Shown here: piece after piece, positions 15,911-23,018 of the stretch
Numbering within the stretch: the stretch's first letter is position 1
Layout of the letters: each line of letters opens with the position of its first letter
Source: Thermococcus sp.
GTDB taxonomy: Archaea; Methanobacteriota_B; Thermococci; Thermococcales; Thermococcaceae
Reading direction: 5' to 3'
DNA length: 64,000 nt
Assembly: GCF_027052235.1 (NCBI RefSeq)
Contig: NZ_JALUFF010000081.1
Coordinates: 5,136-69,135, forward strand
Position numbers and translations under genes: made by a program
Notes under the pieces: model-generated
What the model saw: only the letters and a program-made list of their open reading frames with translations
What the model was told of the DNA's origin: nothing
Database searches by the model: none

Positions 15911-16837
15911 CTACTCGACGAGTTTCAGGAATATTTCCTCTAGGCTTGGCTCTTTGACCTGCATGGTGAGTATTTTCGCCCCCTGCAAAGCCACGAGATC
16001 ATGCAACTCCTCCCTAACATCCTCAGGAGCAACGACACGATATTTGTTCTCACCAAGGGGAGTCACGTTCCATTTAGCGGAACTCCAATCTACGGGCCTG
16101 TTTGTCTCAATGATTATTGTGTAACCCGCTTTCCTCAGGAACTCGCGCTTAATGTTCTCAATGCTGTCCTCTAATCGGAGTTTGCCTCTGACAATCACTC
16201 CAACAGTATCGCAGACCTCTTCCACGTGAGCCAGAATGTGGCTTGAGAAGAAGACAGTTTTGCCGGCCTTTCTCTGCTCCCTAATAATCTCCTTGAACTC
16301 TGCAATGCCCTTGGGGTCAAGACCGCTCATCGGCTCGTCGAGGATCAAAAGCTCGGGGTCATTGATCAAGGCCTGAGCGAGGAGGAGCCTCTGTCTCATT
16401 CCCTTCGAGAACTTGCCCACCTTCTTGTTCCTTACATCCTTGAGACCGACGAGGTCAAGGAGCTCGTTAATCCTCCTCCCCCTCTCGGCCTTCGGGATTT
16501 TAAACGCATCAGCGATTATATCCAGCGTTTGAGCTGGCGTTAGGAAATCCCAAAGAGTGGCGTTCTCGGGCATGTAACCAATTCTGGCCTTAACCTTGAC
16601 TAGTTTAGCCTCGTTAAACTCCCCGTCCCTGAAGACCTCCTCGCCGAAAAGCTCTATTCTCCCCTCCTGAGGAAAGATGAGGCCAAGGGTGCTGAGAATC
16701 GTCGTGCTCTTGCCTGCACCGTTTGGGCCGAGGAAACCGTAAACCTGACCCGACTTAACCTCAAGATTCAATCCATCCAAGGCCCTAACGTCCTTGTAAA
16801 CCTTAACGAGGTTCTCAATCCTGAGCATCACCATCAC
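15911..16837 (-). CDS. ABC exporter ATP-binding subunit
   Basis: GPNGAGKST, FSKGMRQR, LILDEP, SSH. Confidence 0.95.
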   Translation of the reverse strand: MMVMLRIENLVKVYKDVRALDGLNLEVKSGQVYGFLGPNGAGKSTTILSTLGLIFPQEGRIELFGEEVFRDGEFNEAKLVKVKARIGYMPENATLWDFLTPAQTLDIIADAFKIPKAERGRRINELLDLVGLKDVRNKKVGKFSKGMRQRLLLAQALINDPELLILDEPMSGLDPKGIAEFKEIIREQRKAGKTVFFSSHILAHVEEVCDTVGVIVRGKLRLEDSIENIKREFLRKAGYTIIIETNRPVDWSSAKWNVTPLGENKYRVVAPEDVREELHDLVALQGAKILTMQVKEPSLEEIFLKLVE

Positions 16838-17754
16838 CTCAAGTCCATCCTCCTGAACCTGATGAGGGCCAGCACGAGGTAAACGGGGATAAGACCCGCT
16901 ATAACTCCAGTTTGAGCTGGATTCTGTGAGAGGGCATGCTTAACCCCAAGGTATTCGACGGTATACGTGCCGTCGGGGCTGAACTTCGTCGTTTCCACGT
17001 CTTTGATAACGTCCAGCATGAGCACCTGCGGGACGTAGAAGAGGTACTTCAGGTGATACTCCCTGTAAAGCTCGTCGAGGCGCTCCTGATAGGCCGTTCT
17101 CTGCTCGGGGGAGAGCTTCGCGAAGTCTCCCCTCTCGTGGAGCCCGAACTCCTTATCGACCCTGTCCTCCGCCCATCTATCAACGATCTGAGGGGCCACA
17201 AGACCCGTGAGGAAAAATATAACAAGAGCCAGCCCCAAAGCGGTGTTGGAGGAGCGGACGAAGGTCGAAATGAGTAAACCCAGCGCTAAAAGCTGGAGCA
17301 TGGCCAGGAGAACCAAACCGTTGGCCAGCGTAAGGTCCGAGACGAGTTTTCCGCTGAGGGAGAGGCCGTAATGCTCTGTTATGGCAAAGGAGAGAAGAGT
17401 TGCGAAGACCATCGCAACCACTATGCTGACGCTCTGGCCAAGGAACTTGCCGAGCAGGTAGGAAACCCTACCAAGGGGCTTGCTTAAGGCCACCCTGATG
17501 GTTCCGTTTTCAAGGTCGGAGTTAATCCCCGTCGCTCCAGCCATGAGGGCGTATACTCCTATGAAGAGGAACGCACTGACGGCTATGTAGCCGATTAGGC
17601 TCGTCAGGAGGACTCCCTGGGGATCAGAGGCCCCTTCGAGGTTGTCCTTTACCTCCCTGAAGGCCATTGCGTAGATCAGCAAAATCAAAACCAGTATCAG
17701 CCAGAACTTCTTCGTTCGAAGGCCTTTCTTCATCTCAAGCTCAAACCCCCACAT
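16834..17754 (-). CDS. ABC-2 type permease
   Basis: ENGTIRVALSKPLGR...GKF, C-terminal FRRMDLR. Confidence 0.9.
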   Translation of the reverse strand: MWGFELEMKKGLRTKKFWLILVLILLIYAMAFREVKDNLEGASDPQGVLLTSLIGYIAVSAFLFIGVYALMAGATGINSDLENGTIRVALSKPLGRVSYLLGKFLGQSVSIVVAMVFATLLSFAITEHYGLSLSGKLVSDLTLANGLVLLAMLQLLALGLLISTFVRSSNTALGLALVIFFLTGLVAPQIVDRWAEDRVDKEFGLHERGDFAKLSPEQRTAYQERLDELYREYHLKYLFYVPQVLMLDVIKDVETTKFSPDGTYTVEYLGVKHALSQNPAQTGVIAGLIPVYLVLALIRFRRMDLR

Positions 17755-17758
17755 GCTA

Positions 17759-19276
17759 TCACCTCAGGTCTGCTCTCCTAAACCTTAGCCACGTAATGGT
17801 CAAGTAAGCAAACGTTGGAATGATCAGCATGCCCAGGTTACTTTCATGGTTTAAAATCTTATCTATCCCAGCAGGAGGAAGATTGCGCTTCTGAGAGAGC
17901 GCAGAGCTAAGGGCAACGTACTGAACCGAGGGAGCTGGGACGTACAGTGCCCTCCGGGCGAGCTCTCCCGAGTGCCCAAACGTAGTTACAAAGGCTATTG
18001 GGACTACAAAGCCCAGCAAGAAGGCGAGAACCAGCGAGAGGAGAAGTGCCTTTCTCCCCCTCATGAAGGCCGAGAGAAGGTAGCCGAGGGCCAGATACTG
18101 GAGGAGCGAGAGGAAAAGGAGGGAACCAAAGGCAAGGCCGAGTTCGAGGGTTCTACCTAAGGGAGCACCTAAGTGCAGGGCGTAGGCAACGATAAGGGCC
18201 GCGTAGAAAGCAGTTCCAATGAAGACCGCGAGGGTATCGCTGAGGAGCGTTCCCAGGAAAAAGTCTCTCCTCTTCATCGGCTTGCTCAGGAGAACCCTGA
18301 CGGTGCCGTTCTCAATTGCCGAGCCGATCGAGAGCGCCCCGAAGGGCAGAACCACGAAGGGCAAGAAAACGCCGTTCAGGGCCGAGATTACGGCATTCAA
18401 AAGGCCCGGAATACCGAAATCTGAGTGGTAATCCCCGAGCATGGTAAAGTTAAAGAATGCTGTCATGGTGGTCAGAGCGAGGAAAGCAATGAAGCGCCTG
18501 CTCTGAAGGCTCAGCCCGAGGAAAACGCCGTAAAGCCCGCGGGGGGAGAAGGAAAAACCAGGGACAGCAATAGACTCAGGACCCCTCAACTCCCTCCTCC
18601 GGAAGGCTTCCATCCCGACGAGCGACAGAAGAACGAAAACAGCCAAAAGTTGTCCAACGGCCTTATGGGAGACAGAAACGCTCTCGCCGATTGAAACAGC
18701 CCTCTCAAGGTAAACCGTCGGAATGAACGAGTAATCGGATTTTCCGAGGAGAAGGAGAACAACGAACGCCCCAAGCCCGAGGAAGACCCCGGAATCTCGG
18801 GAAGTAGCGAGGGGGATTAGGAGCAGGGCGATTCCAACAACGCCGACCAGCGAGAGCGAAAGGGCAAGGGAGCCTACGAGATAGTCTTTAACTTCGAAGC
18901 TGTGGGCTAGCATTGCAAGCGCTCCCGAGAGTGCAATCCCTAGGGTGAAAATTAGAGCAAGCTTTAACCCCTCGAAGGCCCAGCTTAGGAAATAGCGCCT
19001 CCTCGTGAGGGGCTTTGAGACCATCAAGATGACGCTCCCCCTCTCGAAGTCCGAGCCGAAGCGCGGGAGGAGAATTATTAACAGGACTGGTATGAAGAGG
19101 AACTTGATGAAATTCGGAAGCCATTTGACGAGCAAGTCGGCGGTTATCAGGTGACCGAGCACTTCGGAGGATATGTTGGGATAGTGAGTGGTAAATCTGG
19201 AAACGTCTATCTCGACCGCTATGGCCGGGAAGAGGAACATTACAAAGATTGTAGAGGAGTTTACTTGTTTTTTCAC
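17759..19276 (-). CDS. Tandem (two-domain) ABC-2 type permease
   Basis: Two copies of the E.G.....SKP..R motif and of the F.R.(D/E)LR ending; RBS GGAGGGTG before GTG 19276. Confidence 0.85.
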   Translation of the reverse strand: MKKQVNSSTIFVMFLFPAIAVEIDVSRFTTHYPNISSEVLGHLITADLLVKWLPNFIKFLFIPVLLIILLPRFGSDFERGSVILMVSKPLTRRRYFLSWAFEGLKLALIFTLGIALSGALAMLAHSFEVKDYLVGSLALSLSLVGVVGIALLLIPLATSRDSGVFLGLGAFVVLLLLGKSDYSFIPTVYLERAVSIGESVSVSHKAVGQLLAVFVLLSLVGMEAFRRRELRGPESIAVPGFSFSPRGLYGVFLGLSLQSRRFIAFLALTTMTAFFNFTMLGDYHSDFGIPGLLNAVISALNGVFLPFVVLPFGALSIGSAIENGTVRVLLSKPMKRRDFFLGTLLSDTLAVFIGTAFYAALIVAYALHLGAPLGRTLELGLAFGSLLFLSLLQYLALGYLLSAFMRGRKALLLSLVLAFLLGFVVPIAFVTTFGHSGELARRALYVPAPSVQYVALSSALSQKRNLPPAGIDKILNHESNLGMLIIPTFAYLTITWLRFRRADLR

Positions 19277-19327
19277 AGTACCACCCTCCGAGAGCTAGCT
19301 AATAATTTAAATAATAAACCTGCTCCA

Positions 19328-19348
19328 CAAAGAAATAATAAAAAAGCG
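19328..19348 (-). terminator. Oligo-T terminator after the precursor peptide genes
   Basis: Minus strand CGCTTTTTTATTATTTCTTTG begins 7 nt after the TGA of precursor B. Confidence 0.55.
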
Positions 19349-19354
19349 AGTGTG

Positions 19355-19534
19355 TCAAATATCAATCACTTGGCAATCAGGATCTCCTCCCCAGTCCCAG
19401 AAGCATCCGGTGTCTGTCATCTCACAGCCTTCTCCAAATGCACACTCAATGTAGCAGTTGTCACTGTTGCAGTTGTCACTAGTTATGCATAGAGGTTCAA
19501 TTGGATTGATATTCTTGGTTAACTTCTTGAACAT
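19355..19534 (-). CDS. Cys-rich RiPP precursor B, 59 aa: MFKKLTKNINPIEPLCITSDNCNSDNCYIECAFGEGCEMTDTGCFWDWGGDPDCQVIDI
   Basis: Translated by hand (below the ORF-track cutoff); RBS GGAGGTGA 6 nt before ATG; 7 Cys; leader shared with precursor A; downstream of an rSAM/SPASM gene. Confidence 0.9.
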   Translation of the reverse strand: MFKKLTKNINPIEPLCITSDNCNSDNCYIECAFGEGCEMTDTGCFWDWGGDPDCQVIDI

Positions 19535-19548
19535 TTTCTTTCACCTCC

Positions 19549-19689
19549 TTATACATCTATAATTGTACACGGGCTTTCTGAGGTGCAAATATCTATCAAC
19601 AGACAACTTAGGTCTCTAGAACCACAGTCAATATCAACAAAGCACTGTGGCTCCACCGGGTTGCCACCTGCGTTCAACTTCTTAAACAC
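19549..19689 (-). CDS. Cys-rich RiPP precursor A, 46 aa: MFKKLNAGGNPVEPQCFVDIDCGSRDLSCLLIDICTSESPCTIIDV
   Basis: Translated by hand; RBS GGAGGTGA 6 nt before GTG; 8-nt overlap with the 3' end of the rSAM gene; 5 Cys. Confidence 0.9.
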   Translation of the reverse strand: MFKKLNAGGNPVEPQCFVDIDCGSRDLSCLLIDICTSESPCTIIDV

Positions 19690-21133
19690 CTGCTATCACC
19701 TCCTTTGGTTTTTGGGTTTTGGCCTCATCGGACTCCTCGGCCCTCACCCCTCCCAGGGGTGAGCGTGAGAAGACCTTATTCAACCAGTCTTCGTCAAGAT
19801 TCGAGTAAAGCCAGGAACCCCACCTCACGAGAGCAAACATATAGGAGCAGTGGAACTCGTCGGGGAGAAACACGTCACCGTTGTAGTAGTGGTTGTTGTA
19901 TATACAGCCACCGCCGCAGTAAGCCCTTATCGGGCAGCTCGAACACTTTGGTCTCTTGTCCACAGTATGGTGAAGGATCTTCTGAATGAACTCGTTCTCC
20001 CACCTGAAATCATCAACGTGACCAACCACAAATTTTTCCATTCCAACGAACCTGTGGCAGGGATACATCTTCCCGTCCGCCGAAACCCCGAAGTAGCTCC
20101 TGGCAACACCACAGGGATAATGGCGGTAGGTGCCGGAGTAAATCATGTGAACCATCTCACGGAGCTTTGTGTAAACGATTCCTTTCTCCTTGTAGTGTTC
20201 AAGCTCGTCCTTCGCTATCTTTTCGAGGGCAGATTCAACGAGTTTAGCATGCTTCTCAGTCAGTGGTGTACTTGTGGTAGCTGGCTCAAGATGAACGCTC
20301 CTGAAACCAAAATCAACGAAGAATCTGTAAATCTCATAGTATCTATCAAGCTGCTCTGGCAGAACCGTTGCGCGGATGCTAACCTTAACGCCACGCTCAA
20401 GCATCTTCTCTGCATTCCTCGCTACAACATCAAAGGTTGGATATCCCCCACGTAGAGGTCTGTTGTTATTTTGAATGTCTCTAGGGCCATCAAAGCTTAG
20501 AGTCACCGTGAAGTTGTTCTCAAGGAAAAAGTCAATGACCTTCTCTGTGACGAGATAACCGTTGGTTGTTATGCTGAAGGTAACAACTTTATCGTGTTCT
20601 TTAGCCTTCTCTTTTGCATATTGAACCAGCTCCCGAATCAGCGGAAAGTTCAACAAAGGTTCGCCACCAAAGAACTGAATGTTAACGACCTTCTTCCCCT
20701 CTCTCATTAGCAGGTCAATGGCCTTTTTAGCAACTTCTGGACTCATTCTAGTATTGGGAGTGTGGTAAGTACCGCCATCACCATAACAGTAAACACAAGC
20801 AAAGTTGCAGTCTTCCATGACGTTAAGGGAAATGGACGAAATCTTGGATTTTATGATTCCGAGATATGGCTTTACGGGTGGCTTAGATTCATAGAATACG
20901 CGACGGAGATCTTCATCAGATTTAATCTCCTTTATCAAAGAATCCCAGTCAGATGTAGAGTATTCCTTTACAAAACGATCCTTGCCATCACCCCAGCCCA
21001 ACTCTGCCACAAACCTGCAGAAGTCATAGGTTTTCTTATCGACCTCAAATAGGGTTCCTGTAGGTGAATGCAGAACAAAGTACTTGCCACCAACGTGGAA
21101 GGTGTGCAATTCCGGTCTCACGTCACCAGACAT
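19682..21133 (-). CDS. Radical SAM/SPASM peptide maturase with N-terminal RRE-like domain (ranthipeptide-synthase type)
   Basis: CNFACVYC, FFGGEPLL, SITTNG, SPASM CG...YPCHRF...CSSCPIRAYCGGGC...C; N-terminal LHTFHVGGKYFVLHSPTGTLFEVD resembles a PqqD/RRE domain. Confidence 0.92.
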   Translation of the reverse strand: MSGDVRPELHTFHVGGKYFVLHSPTGTLFEVDKKTYDFCRFVAELGWGDGKDRFVKEYSTSDWDSLIKEIKSDEDLRRVFYESKPPVKPYLGIIKSKISSISLNVMEDCNFACVYCYGDGGTYHTPNTRMSPEVAKKAIDLLMREGKKVVNIQFFGGEPLLNFPLIRELVQYAKEKAKEHDKVVTFSITTNGYLVTEKVIDFFLENNFTVTLSFDGPRDIQNNNRPLRGGYPTFDVVARNAEKMLERGVKVSIRATVLPEQLDRYYEIYRFFVDFGFRSVHLEPATTSTPLTEKHAKLVESALEKIAKDELEHYKEKGIVYTKLREMVHMIYSGTYRHYPCGVARSYFGVSADGKMYPCHRFVGMEKFVVGHVDDFRWENEFIQKILHHTVDKRPKCSSCPIRAYCGGGCIYNNHYYNGDVFLPDEFHCSYMFALVRWGSWLYSNLDEDWLNKVFSRSPLGGVRAEESDEAKTQKPKEVIAGV

Positions 21134-21143
21134 TGTACTCTAA

Positions 21144-21188
21144 CACCTCCGAAAAAAAAAACTGTAGTTAATGTTTATAAGATTTTCT
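21144..21188 (-). promoter_or_regulatory. Own promoter and RBS of the rSAM gene, containing a T10 tract
   Basis: Minus strand AGAAAATC-TTATAAAC (21173-21188), T10 (21152-21161), GGAGGTG (21144-21150). Confidence 0.6.
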
Positions 21189-21212
21189 ATTCATTTGTAA
21201 AACAATAGAGTA

Positions 21213-22211
21213 TTAAAGTTTTTCTACTCTATCAAAACGACCAAAAATAATCAAAAACACATCCCCAAGTGATAGTTCTTCAACTCTAATCTGCATGGCA
21301 CCCTTTGAGGATAAAACCCTCACGAACTCATCCACCTCATTGATTTTAAGATAGGCCGTGACATGAGTGTAGTTCCCTTTGGTAAGACACCGAGCCATAT
21401 GCCATCTGTTGCATTCAACTTTTCCCTTCACAATCGCACTGACCTTTTTATCAACTGGAACCCTGAGCTTCCTGCTTATCTCCTCAGGCTTTCCCTCAAG
21501 GATGGGCCTCTTGTTGAAGAGTAGAACCCTGTCACTCAGCTTCTCTGCCTCCTGAAGGTCGTGGGTGGTGAGGATAACAGTCGTTCCAAAGTCCTGAACG
21601 AGGGTCATTATTGCGTCATGTATCTCGCTCTTGGTTATCACATCGAGAAAAACCGTCGGCTCGTCGAGTATGAGGTACTTCGGCCTGACCACTAGTGCGG
21701 AGGCGATGTAAACCTTCTGCTTCATTCCGGCCGAGAGCTTCTGGTACCATTCGTTCCTCTTCTCCCACAGGTTCAGCAGTTTGAGGGCGTACTCTATGCG
21801 TTCCCCCATCTCAGCCTCGGGAACCTTCCACAGCCTCGCGATGAACTGAAGGTTCCTGTAAACGCTCAGGCGCCACTGGAATACCCCCCACATGTCCCTC
21901 TCGCCAGTGAAAACCGTGAACATCTCCCTCGCAACTTTGCCGTGCTCCCTAAAGCTGTCGTGGCCGTCGATGAGCAGTTTTCCAGAACTCGGCTCAAGCA
22001 GGCCGTTGGCGATTTTACAGAGGGTCGTCTTTCCCGCACCGTTGGGACCGAGGAGGCCGAATATCTCCCCCTCCCTCACCTGAAAGCTAAGATTCACGAG
22101 GGCCGGAATCTCCTCCCTGGGTCTTCCGAGAAAATCACGGAGACTGTCCAGATCGAAGAAGCCCCCAAAAGGAGGTGGATAGTACTTGGTCAGGTTAACT
22201 GCCTCAATCAT
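21213..22211 (-). CDS. ABC exporter ATP-binding subunit
   Basis: GPNGAGKTT, LSAGMKQK, LILDEP, LTTH. Confidence 0.95.
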   Translation of the reverse strand: MIEAVNLTKYYPPPFGGFFDLDSLRDFLGRPREEIPALVNLSFQVREGEIFGLLGPNGAGKTTLCKIANGLLEPSSGKLLIDGHDSFREHGKVAREMFTVFTGERDMWGVFQWRLSVYRNLQFIARLWKVPEAEMGERIEYALKLLNLWEKRNEWYQKLSAGMKQKVYIASALVVRPKYLILDEPTVFLDVITKSEIHDAIMTLVQDFGTTVILTTHDLQEAEKLSDRVLLFNKRPILEGKPEEISRKLRVPVDKKVSAIVKGKVECNRWHMARCLTKGNYTHVTAYLKINEVDEFVRVLSSKGAMQIRVEELSLGDVFLIIFGRFDRVEKL

Positions 22212-22220
22212 CCAACCACC

Positions 22221-23018
22221 TCACACGTGACCCAATGTGCCAAGCTGCATCGCCTTTCTAACGCCCCACCTAAACGTGGCGATTCCTACTAAAAACATAA
22301 TACCGGTAGTTAGGATAAGGTTCACAAAACTCGGCCAGATTTGAGACACTGAATAGCCCCCGCCCATCGTCAGCCTGGCCATCTCAAGAATGTACCTCTC
22401 GGGGTGTATCTTGGAAATAGGCTGGAGCCACCAGGGGAGCGCGTCGGGCGGGAAGTAAAGACCGCTCACGAGCTGGGAGGTGAGGTTGAGGAACCAGTTT
22501 ACAGGATCCTGCCTCGCTTTAGTGGCAGTCCGAAAGCCCGCCGAAAAAAGTTCGAGGGCAAATGTGAGGGTGAAGCCAGCAAGGATAACTAGCAGGGCAC
22601 CGAGGTTGAGGTGAATAACTAAGCCGTAGAAGAGAACGAAGACTACCGTTATTAGGCCCATTATCATAAGGCTCCAGACGACATTCCAGGCATTTATTCC
22701 TACAAAGACCGCTACCATTCCAGCGGGGGAGGCATATAGCATCGGAAAGCTCCTCCCAATCAGGAGCTTGGAAAGGCTACCGCGCGGAAGGAATATTATG
22801 TTGTGCACGATGAAGCCTATCAGAAAGAACTGAAGGAAAGAGTTAGTTCCGTACTGCTCGATGTTCGCGTTTATGGTCACCAAACTGGCGAATATTCCCA
22901 TGACTGCAACCTGGATTAGAAGGCCTATCAGGTAGCTTACCACGTCCCAGCGGTAGCTGAAAAAGACCTCTCTCTGAACATTGAAGAACTCCCGGACTAT
23001 TTTAACACCGTCCCTCAT
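22221..23018 (-). CDS. ABC-2 type permease
   Basis: About 6 TM; SGLYFPPDALPWWLQPISKIHP motif. Confidence 0.88.
   Translation of the reverse strand: MRDGVKIVREFFNVQREVFFSYRWDVVSYLIGLLIQVAVMGIFASLVTINANIEQYGTNSFLQFFLIGFIVHNIIFLPRGSLSKLLIGRSFPMLYASPAGMVAVFVGINAWNVVWSLMIMGLITVVFVLFYGLVIHLNLGALLVILAGFTLTFALELFSAGFRTATKARQDPVNWFLNLTSQLVSGLYFPPDALPWWLQPISKIHPERYILEMARLTMGGGYSVSQIWPSFVNLILTTGIMFLVGIATFRWGVRKAMQLGTLGHV

Follow-up and report, generated by a model that had tools for sequence, protein, structure and literature searches.

A Cys/Asp-rich peptide gene overlapping a radical-SAM maturase gene in Thermococcus sp., a candidate archaeal relative of the freyrasin system

The stretch of Thermococcus sp. 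DNA analysed here, 64,000 nt of contig NZ_JALUFF010000081.1 (hereafter the window, whose positions serve as coordinates throughout), carries on its minus strand a gene cluster in which two small Cys/Asp-rich open reading frames (ORFs), encoding precursors A and B, directly follow the gene for a radical S-adenosylmethionine (rSAM) enzyme with a SPASM domain. As judged from sequence comparison, precursor A is very probably a translated, unannotated gene for the precursor of a peptide that is made on the ribosome and modified after translation (RiPP), and the system as a whole is very probably an uncharacterised archaeal relative of freyrasin PapA/PapB, of the ranthipeptide kind. The specific reading that we favour, with a probability of roughly 0.7, is that the adjacent rSAM enzyme makes an in-line chain of Cys-to-Asp/Glu thioethers on precursor A.

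In the mechanism proposed, the leader of precursor A (residues 1-14) would dock on an N-terminal RiPP recognition element (RRE) of the enzyme, which would link each Cys to a downstream Asp or Glu, as PapB does on PapA and QhpD on QhpC. Five consecutive, non-overlapping rings would be formed, namely C16-D19 (or C16-D21), C22-D26, C29-D33, C35-E38 and C41-D45. Each thioether costs 2 Da, giving an expected net change of -10 Da for precursor A, and the product would be a compact, very acidic and heat-stable peptide. Production of precursor A would be coupled to that of the maturase through the overlapping GTG and TAA codons and through a Shine-Dalgarno sequence within the codons of the enzyme's disordered tail, and precursor B would be made in the same way. 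The flanking ATP-binding cassette (ABC) systems probably export the product, protect the producer, or both.

The precursor gene and its conservation

Translation of the minus strand from 19689 to 19549 gives MFKKLNAGGNPVEPQCFVDIDCGSRDLSCLLIDICTSESPCTIIDV, in which Cys is found at positions 16, 22, 29, 35 and 41, a spacing of 6, 7, 6 and 6 residues. Three of the Cys are in CX3D units with the acid at +4 (C22-D26, C29-D33 and C41-D45), and the other two are in CX2D/E units with the acid at +3 (C16-D19 and C35-E38), C16 also having D21 at +5. The C-terminal ends are CTIIDV in precursor A and CQVIDI in precursor B, and in both peptides every Cys is followed by an acid in repeated Cys-Xn-Asp/Glu units (5/5 in A, 7/7 in B). 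Each core (32 residues for A) was shuffled 200,000 times, and a shuffle was counted if every Cys had an Asp or Glu at +3 or +4 before the next Cys. This occurred in 13 of the 200,000 shuffles for A, a frequency of about 7e-5, and in 1 of 200,000 for B. Neither precursor matched any Pfam or NCBIfam model.

The rSAM gene ends with AAG GAG GTG ATA GCA GGT GTT TAA (KEVIAGV*), and the start signal of precursor A lies within these codons. The Shine-Dalgarno sequence GGAGGTGA (19703-19696) is followed by a 6-nt spacer and then the GTG at 19689, and the start of precursor A overlaps the rSAM stop by 8 nt. The same GGAGGTGA (19548-19541) and a spacer of the same length precede the ATG of precursor B at 19534. 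There are nine occurrences of GGAGGTGA in the window, compared with 2.8 expected, and two of these nine are the ones preceding A and B. The 16S rRNA 3' end, carrying the anti-Shine-Dalgarno sequence, was not found in the draft genome; the complementarity is taken from general knowledge of archaeal 16S ends, combined with the enrichment of GGAGGTGA in the window. In orthologues of 68-69% identity the same GGAGGTGAT is read in another frame and encodes Gly-Gly-Asp, compared with Lys-Glu-Val-Ile in the window enzyme, and the tail of the enzyme (residues 459-483) is predicted to be disordered in an AlphaFold2 (AF2) model.

Orthologues of the rSAM enzyme (68-89% identity) are present in 9 of 97 Thermococcaceae genomes, and in all nine the rSAM gene is directly followed by one to three small Cys/Asp-rich ORFs. 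One cultured carrier is Thermococcus celericrescens, with an enzyme of 89% identity. First-position precursors in this family all start with GTG after GGAGG(TGAT) inside the enzyme tail. The peptides begin MF(K/R)KL(N/T), with N6 replaced by T or G in some members, and the A-type copies share NPVEP right before the first Cys, whereas the cores differ almost completely between orthologous loci. A hidden Markov model of the precursors, applied in a six-frame search of the 97 genomes, matched exactly those nine genomes, always beside the enzyme, the extra matches being one orphan copy and one broken fragment.

A preliminary description of this DNA, made from the letters alone, had given the Cys spacing, the CX3D and CX2D/E assignments and a shared C-x-x-I-D-(V/I) ending for the two precursors, all of which were recovered exactly on re-translation. 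It had also placed the ribosome-binding site and GTG within the last rSAM codons, where they indeed lie. Its proposal of translational coupling to the maturase is supported by the overlapping GTG after GGAGG(TGAT), conserved in all close orthologues, and its suggestion that the enzyme's tail is shaped by the ribosome-binding site is supported by the change of reading frame in the more distant orthologues. That A is a precursor of the adjacent enzyme, as was claimed there, agrees with the constant presence of such ORFs after the enzyme at orthologous loci, with conserved leaders and variable cores.

The boundary between leader and core is also visible in the DNA. Against three orthologous loci, compared in 30-nt bins, nucleotide identity stays at 85-95% over the 3' end of the rSAM gene and over the leader, falls to about 35% where leader meets core, near 19641-19645 and Cys16, and recovers no earlier than the next gene, which encodes a double permease. 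An extension of the hypervariable region into the double permease was considered and rejected, since amino acid identity is uniform along this protein, at about 73%, and indels account for the broken nucleotide alignment downstream of the cores. Two metagenomic homologues, 85% identical to precursor A, keep all of the Cys and acids and otherwise carry conservative changes. The conserved leader, the hypervariable core and purifying selection within an allele make up the signature of a RiPP precursor. In existing gene calls the family has 9 members among 5.8 billion predicted protein clusters, none of them named, and precursor genes such as these are invisible to standard annotation.

Three further observations concern the spread of the precursors. 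One locus (L003, on contig C25 of genome G016) contains a 138-nt direct repeat of 83% identity (644-781 and 1465-1602), in which the final ~100 nt of the rSAM gene recur together with the leader before the third precursor, itself the orthologue of window precursor B. The repeat suggests that recombination within the conserved tail/leader segment may be the way in which new core cassettes are acquired. An orphan precursor, MFRRLNKGSYDVQPECWLSDSC...CDLDPF, is encoded on the minus strand at 1477-1665 of a locus in genome G040 (L113, contig C44), beside a 428-aa ABC-2-like membrane protein. This genome has no orthologous rSAM, a peptide-permease-like gene stands in the enzyme's place, and a fragment like the N-terminus of the double permease lies upstream. 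A weak match to the precursor profile with an in-frame TGA, at 546-665 of a locus in genome G055 (L131, contig C46), is probably a decayed precursor copy.

Proposed Cys-acid pairing, the maturase and alternative readings

In 17 distinct Thermococcaceae cores, Asp/Glu is enriched relative to Cys at +3 (48%, z = 7) and +4 (41%, z = 5), and also two residues ahead of the following Cys (-2; 63%, z = 11), which is the strongest positional signal. Taken together, these enrichments define the repeat unit as C-x(2-3)-D-x. The cores are related sequences and the z-scores overstate their independence; the argument is that the rule was kept while the cores diverged. Two archaeal subfamilies together supply 29 peptides with 193 Cys, and for 190 of these an acid comes before the next Cys. 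The two ends of these peptides are not equivalent: in 28 of the 29 an acid follows the last Cys at +3/+4, whereas only 3 have an acid at -2 of the first Cys, and the peptides end 0-3 residues past the last acid. This asymmetry of last and first Cys indicates that each Cys would pair with the downstream acid and not with the upstream one.

The chain of non-overlapping thioether rings proposed in the preliminary description is supported. The family-wide acid at +3/+4 and the polarity of the ends, both in keeping with the N-to-C direction of PapB, and the active-site profile of the enzyme (see below) speak for it; its repeat unit had to be widened, CX2D being about as common as CX3D, and the thioether chemistry itself stays at the level of prediction.

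The second of the two archaeal subfamilies is a sister group whose enzyme is 36-39% identical, whose peptides obey the same Cys-acid rule and have a related leader, M(H)MKKLNG...PLC, and in which the gene order is precursors, two membrane proteins, ABC ATPase and then rSAM. Five such loci, each with one to three precursors of the pattern M(H)MKKLNG..PLCWIDxC...CWIYDSC..DY.PPCKFIDRCGMD, were seen on metagenome-assembled archaeal contigs (sources GCA_015665585.1 and GCA_964411315.1), and one genome carries two of them. Neighbouring genes for SepF, Hjc, Pelota and Cas6 I-A mark the genomes as archaeal. In addition, a paralogous rSAM/SPASM system (38-42% identity) is found in four Thermococcus genomes, three genomes having both systems together. 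Its own overlapping precursor reads MEFEVVNPGDKTK...CGVLD..CPFPED..CWWPED..CYRPE, each Cys having Asp/Glu at +4 or +5.

The alternative that survives best, which we nevertheless regard as unlikely, is that the enzyme makes thioether rings of some other connectivity, either nested or interleaved as in part of freyrasin, or joined in the D-x-C sense, or closed on an alpha-carbon (sactionine). The acid at -2, found for 119 of 164 non-first Cys in the 29 peptides, would fit D-x-C pairing; PapB is able to make nested as well as in-line links (PMC9413430); and C16 has two candidate acceptors, D19 and D21. In precursor A itself, however, an acid at -2 is present for one of the four non-first Cys, compared with an acid at +3/+4 for all five Cys, and the end asymmetry across the family also favours downstream pairing. 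The sactionine form is further disfavoured by an active-site profile unlike that of the sactisynthase-like AlbA homologue.

The domain content of the window enzyme is Radical_SAM, Fer4_12 and SPASM in Pfam. The radical-SAM Cys (C109, C113 and C116, in CX3CX2C) and the SPASM Cys (C341, C359, C397, C400, C406, C410 and C429) are all invariant in 77 homologues and aligned with those of CteB. This thioether synthase is the closest solved structure, aligning with residues 9-441 (4e-59), including CX3CX2C and all auxiliary-cluster Cys. In the AF2 model (predicted local distance difference test score 90.9), the N-terminal domain (residues 9-81) is RRE-like, with three strands (9-31) and then three helices (33-81), and a Foldseek search with the model gave CteB first (template-modelling score 0.78-0.89) and anSME second. 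The structural alignment with CteB, like that of the sequences, begins at residue 9, and the enzyme has an N-terminal RRE.

Six positions in proximity to the catalytic site have been defined on CteB (F112, F152, T186, S210, H363 and Q364; PMC10288494). At these the window enzyme has Y117, F155, T189, S213, H360 and R361 (YFTSHR), a combination common to PapB, one QhpD-family enzyme and nif11-type maturases. The corresponding residues are FFTSHQ in six SCIFF maturases and CteB, and YYITWA in a Thermococcus AlbA-like enzyme. Linkage of Cys to the beta-carbon of Asp or the gamma-carbon of Glu is the reaction of two characterised enzymes, PapB and QhpD (PMC9413430, PMC12373016, PMC13692751). In its radical-SAM and SPASM Cys, its RRE and its proximity residues, the window enzyme agrees with the ranthisynthases, the QhpD-like group of RRE-rSAM-SPASM enzymes (PMC10288494).

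It is rather improbable that the enzyme catalyses a different rSAM/SPASM reaction, such as epimerisation, C-C or C-O cross-linking or anSME-like Cys oxidation, with the Cys/Asp pattern serving, for example, metal binding. The enzyme does fall in no curated family and branches apart from the characterised clades, and anSME is its second-best structural match. However, the enzyme has all seven SPASM Cys together with proximity residues of the PapB/QhpD type, it matches a thioether synthase over its full length, RRE included, and a strict rule of one acid per Cys is what Cys-to-Asp pairing predicts.

Unmodified Cys/Asp-rich peptides, binding metals or held by disulfide bonds, beside an rSAM enzyme that acts on another substrate, are very improbable. 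Sequences of this composition can bind metals, and G040 keeps a precursor without an orthologous enzyme, but such peptides would leave unexplained the strict adjacency and co-occurrence in 9/9 genomes, the overlap of precursor start and enzyme stop, the RiPP signature of the peptides and the RRE domain of the enzyme. That the ORF is merely an untranslated chance frame downstream of the rSAM gene hardly deserves consideration: it is absent from almost all gene calls, as the few protein clusters cited above show, but its frame, start codon, Shine-Dalgarno sequence and leader are conserved though the core DNA has diverged to random, it is also kept in another archaeal subfamily whose genes are ordered differently, and the shuffles seldom reproduced its pattern.

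Several points weigh against the in-line Cys-to-Asp/Glu chain on precursor A. The strength of the -2 signal has been noted, and the sequence alone is compatible with D-x-C pairing. YFTSHR also occurs in nif11-type maturases, hence it is not specific to Asp/Glu linkage. The top NCBIfam match of the window enzyme, PapB (NF047865), is below cutoff (288.9 bits; cutoff 340). In an IQ-TREE phylogeny of 55 proteins, whose root is uncertain, the AlbA-like outgroup being on a very long branch, the group containing PapB, SCIFF, QhpD and nif11 enzymes (support 95) does not include the window clade or the paralogues from Thermococcus, nor the sister archaeal family. The similarity of the family leader to that of PapA is weak (hhalign probability 39%; BLASTP by itself not significant, E 1.4), and no leader peptidase is encoded in the cluster.

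The PapB match itself was rejected as evidence, since true SCIFF, QhpD and nif11 maturases score 250-293 bits on the same model and the score is therefore uninformative, reflecting superfamily background. In the tree, the window enzyme and its orthologues form a supported archaeal clade (Shimodaira-Hasegawa-like approximate likelihood ratio test 95-100). The window enzyme is probably PapB-like in function and is outside the curated PapB family. Among the matches listed in a scan of genome contigs with the rSAM alignment there were only distant bacterial loci of SCIFF, nif11 and QhpD type and no named archaeal relatives; some of these bacterial loci were reused as labelled references in the score, tree and profile comparisons.

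Layout of the locus and its possible role

The eight-gene order, in which two ABC systems bracket the rSAM gene and the precursors, is conserved in orthologous loci (Table 1). By eye, the region ahead of the rSAM gene may contain a promoter for rSAM, A and B, and the T-rich tract after precursor B may be an archaeal oligo-T terminator.

Table 1. Features of the cluster in the window, in order along the minus strand
Feature	Position	Strand	Basis
ABC-2 type permease, first gene of the cluster (upstream transporter)	22221..23018	-	Pfam ABC2_membrane; syntenic, 93-95% identical in orthologous loci
ABC transporter ATPase (upstream transporter)	21213..22211	-	Pfam ABC_tran, NCBIfam DrrA-like; syntenic in orthologous loci
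Intergenic region with TATA-like CTTATAAAC, T10 run and GGAGGTG ahead of the rSAM ATG; candidate promoter	21134..21212	-	By eye
RRE-radical SAM-SPASM peptide maturase (putative), 483 aa	19682..21133	-	NCBIfam, Pfam, CteB alignment, AF2, Foldseek
Shine-Dalgarno GGAGGTGA of precursor A, within last rSAM codons	19696..19703	-	Sequence; kept in orthologues
Precursor A, 46 aa, GTG start, TAA stop	19549..19689	-	ORF, conservation, shuffle test
Precursor A leader, residues 1-14 (MFKKLNAGGNPVEP)	19689-19648	-	
Precursor A core, residues 15-46 (stop codon 19551-19549)	19647-19552	-	
Shine-Dalgarno GGAGGTGA of precursor B	19541..19548	-	Sequence
Precursor B, 59 aa, 7 Cys, leader same as A; candidate second substrate	19355..19534	-	ORF, profile, shuffle test
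T-rich tract TTTTTTATTATTTCTTT 3' of precursor B; candidate terminator	19329..19345	-	By eye
Double ABC-2 membrane protein, 505 aa (downstream transporter)	17759..19276	-	Pfam ABC2_membrane_2 on residues 286-504; 69-74% identical in orthologous loci
ABC-2 permease (downstream transporter)	16834..17754	-	Pfam ABC2_membrane_2 2e-55; 76-77% identical in orthologous loci
ABC ATPase, DrrA/GldA-like (downstream transporter)	15911..16837	-	NCBIfam, Pfam, synteny

The two transporters have not diverged equally. Relative to three orthologous loci, identity is 69-77% for the downstream ABC-2 membrane proteins, 93-95% for the upstream permease and 83-89% for the ATPases, and the downstream transporter may co-vary with the peptide cores. 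In one orthologous locus of 68% identity, both ABC systems are present and no match to the fused double permease was found. The G+C content is 0.40-0.44 at 19200-19600 and 20400-21600, compared with about 0.52-0.55 around these segments. The dip takes in the precursors together with the rSAM gene's 5' half and extends into the upstream ATPase gene at its 3' end. This low-G+C segment is consistent with a foreign origin.

The patchy distribution (9/97 genomes), the hypervariable cores, the low-G+C rSAM/precursor segment and the faster divergence of the downstream ABC-2 proteins together suggest, speculatively, a role in antagonism or signalling with a matching transporter. A more definite version of this idea, which we put forward as a doubtful possibility, is that the cluster is a strain-variable archaeal weapon or signal. 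Its product would be an archaeocin, a hyperthermostable Cys-Asp thioether peptide with multiple rings. Thermococcus strains would exchange core cassettes through recombination in the conserved segment of rSAM tail and leader, and the faster-evolving downstream ABC-2 membrane proteins would provide the matching immunity or export. If the cluster does make such an archaeocin, it would be the earliest case of a short thioether RiPP natural product in a hyperthermophilic archaeon, and its enzyme would by nature form rings of both four and five residues at temperatures of 80 degrees C and higher.

To our knowledge, no radical-SAM RiPP has been characterised from Thermococcales, and literature searches gave no paper that treats ranthipeptides and Thermococcus together. 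In surveys of archaeal RiPP classes, clusters of ranthipeptide type are listed but not characterised (PMC12144867). The locus is a compact and testable enzyme/substrate pair, consisting of a 46-residue peptide and one enzyme, and would be the first such thioether-peptide system of a hyperthermophilic archaeon. PapB is under development as a general peptide-stapling catalyst (PMC9413430, PMC12373016), and a hyperthermophile homologue that by nature accepts many different cores and forms rings of two sizes could prove more robust for the same purpose. The hypervariable cores and patchy distribution could also offer an entry to peptide-mediated competition or signalling among hyperthermophilic archaea.

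Comparison with known systems

A radical-SAM RiPP candidate in the same genus has been reported bioinformatically, in the form of subtilosin-like sboA/albA loci in Thermococcus celer and T. nautili (bioRxiv 10.64898/2026.07.27.741052), with a system and precursor unrelated to those of the window. An AlbA-like rSAM enzyme of 428 aa, about 31% identical over the core and followed by a 391-aa membrane protein, was seen at one locus in each of two genomes (G043 and G018), and these may be the published subtilosin-like locus. For the window system itself, assignment as an AlbA-like sactipeptide system was rejected, since the active-site profile differs and the precursor is an in-line repeat, without a Cys half and an acceptor half.

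The one experimentally characterised archaeal ranthionine-forming enzyme that we found in the literature is CrpC of Methanococcus voltae (TIGR04463), shown to install ranthionine links on a large protein (PMC13692751). Like the window system, it combines an archaeal SPASM rSAM enzyme and RRE with Cys-rich substrates that share an N-terminal recognition region. Its substrate CrpA, however, is a large repeat protein, compared with a 46-aa peptide here, and the window enzyme scores only 85 bits on TIGR04463.

CteB, with its substrate CteA, and the other SCIFF maturases (thermocellin; TIGR03974; PDB 5WGG/5WHY) give the best full-length structural match, including the RRE, and have the same cluster-binding Cys. 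In contrast, the score of the window enzyme on the SCIFF model TIGR03974 is 247.3 bits against a cutoff of 425, and the SCIFF (six-Cys-in-forty-five) motif is absent from the precursors.

QhpD, which acts on QhpC in the maturation of quinohemoprotein amine dehydrogenase (TIGR03906), has the same YFTSHR profile as the window enzyme, and installs Cys-Asp (beta-carbon) and Cys-Glu (gamma-carbon) thioethers using its RRE and a leader (PMC13692751). The window enzyme obtains 273 bits on the QhpD model, for which the cutoff is 453. The QhpD substrate is an enzyme subunit and not a free peptide, whereas the neighbours of the window genes are ABC transporters, with no dehydrogenase genes.

The freyrasin system of Paenibacillus polymyxa has several features in common with that of the window. 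PapB and the window enzyme are about 32% identical RRE-rSAM-SPASM proteins, both with YFTSHR, and PapA and precursor A are both short (about 50 aa), their cores consisting of successive Cys that are all followed by Asp. In a P. polymyxa contig, a small ORF in front of papB encodes PapA, MLKQINVIAGVKEPVRAYGCTRSDFCLFCDTSDYCKNCDRNDLCIKGDE, of the form MLKQINVIAGVKEP...C...D. It aligns with the leader of the Thermococcus family in register at M1, hydrophobic residue 2, K3, N6 and E13-P14, in the pattern M-hydrophobic-K-x-hydrophobic-N...EP (hhalign E 3e-4, with the low probability given above). The Asn of the PapA leader has been proposed as an RRE contact (PMC9413430). PapB links Cys to C-terminally placed Asp or Glu, accepting CX0-6D and Glu (PMC9413430; see also PMC12373016). 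Given these tolerated gaps of 0-6 residues and the acceptance of Glu, the natural mixture of CX2D, CX3D and CX2E in precursor A is chemically plausible. Neither of the two loci encodes a peptidase, and each has a further ABC transporter in addition to its ABC-2 system. The spacing differs, however, PapA having uniform, partly overlapping CX3D units, whereas those of precursor A are mixed CX2D and CX3D, separated by one residue and non-overlapping. The Thermococcus system differs further from PapAB in that the precursor gene lies downstream of the enzyme gene and overlaps it, in having one to three hypervariable precursors per locus, and in its archaeal host.

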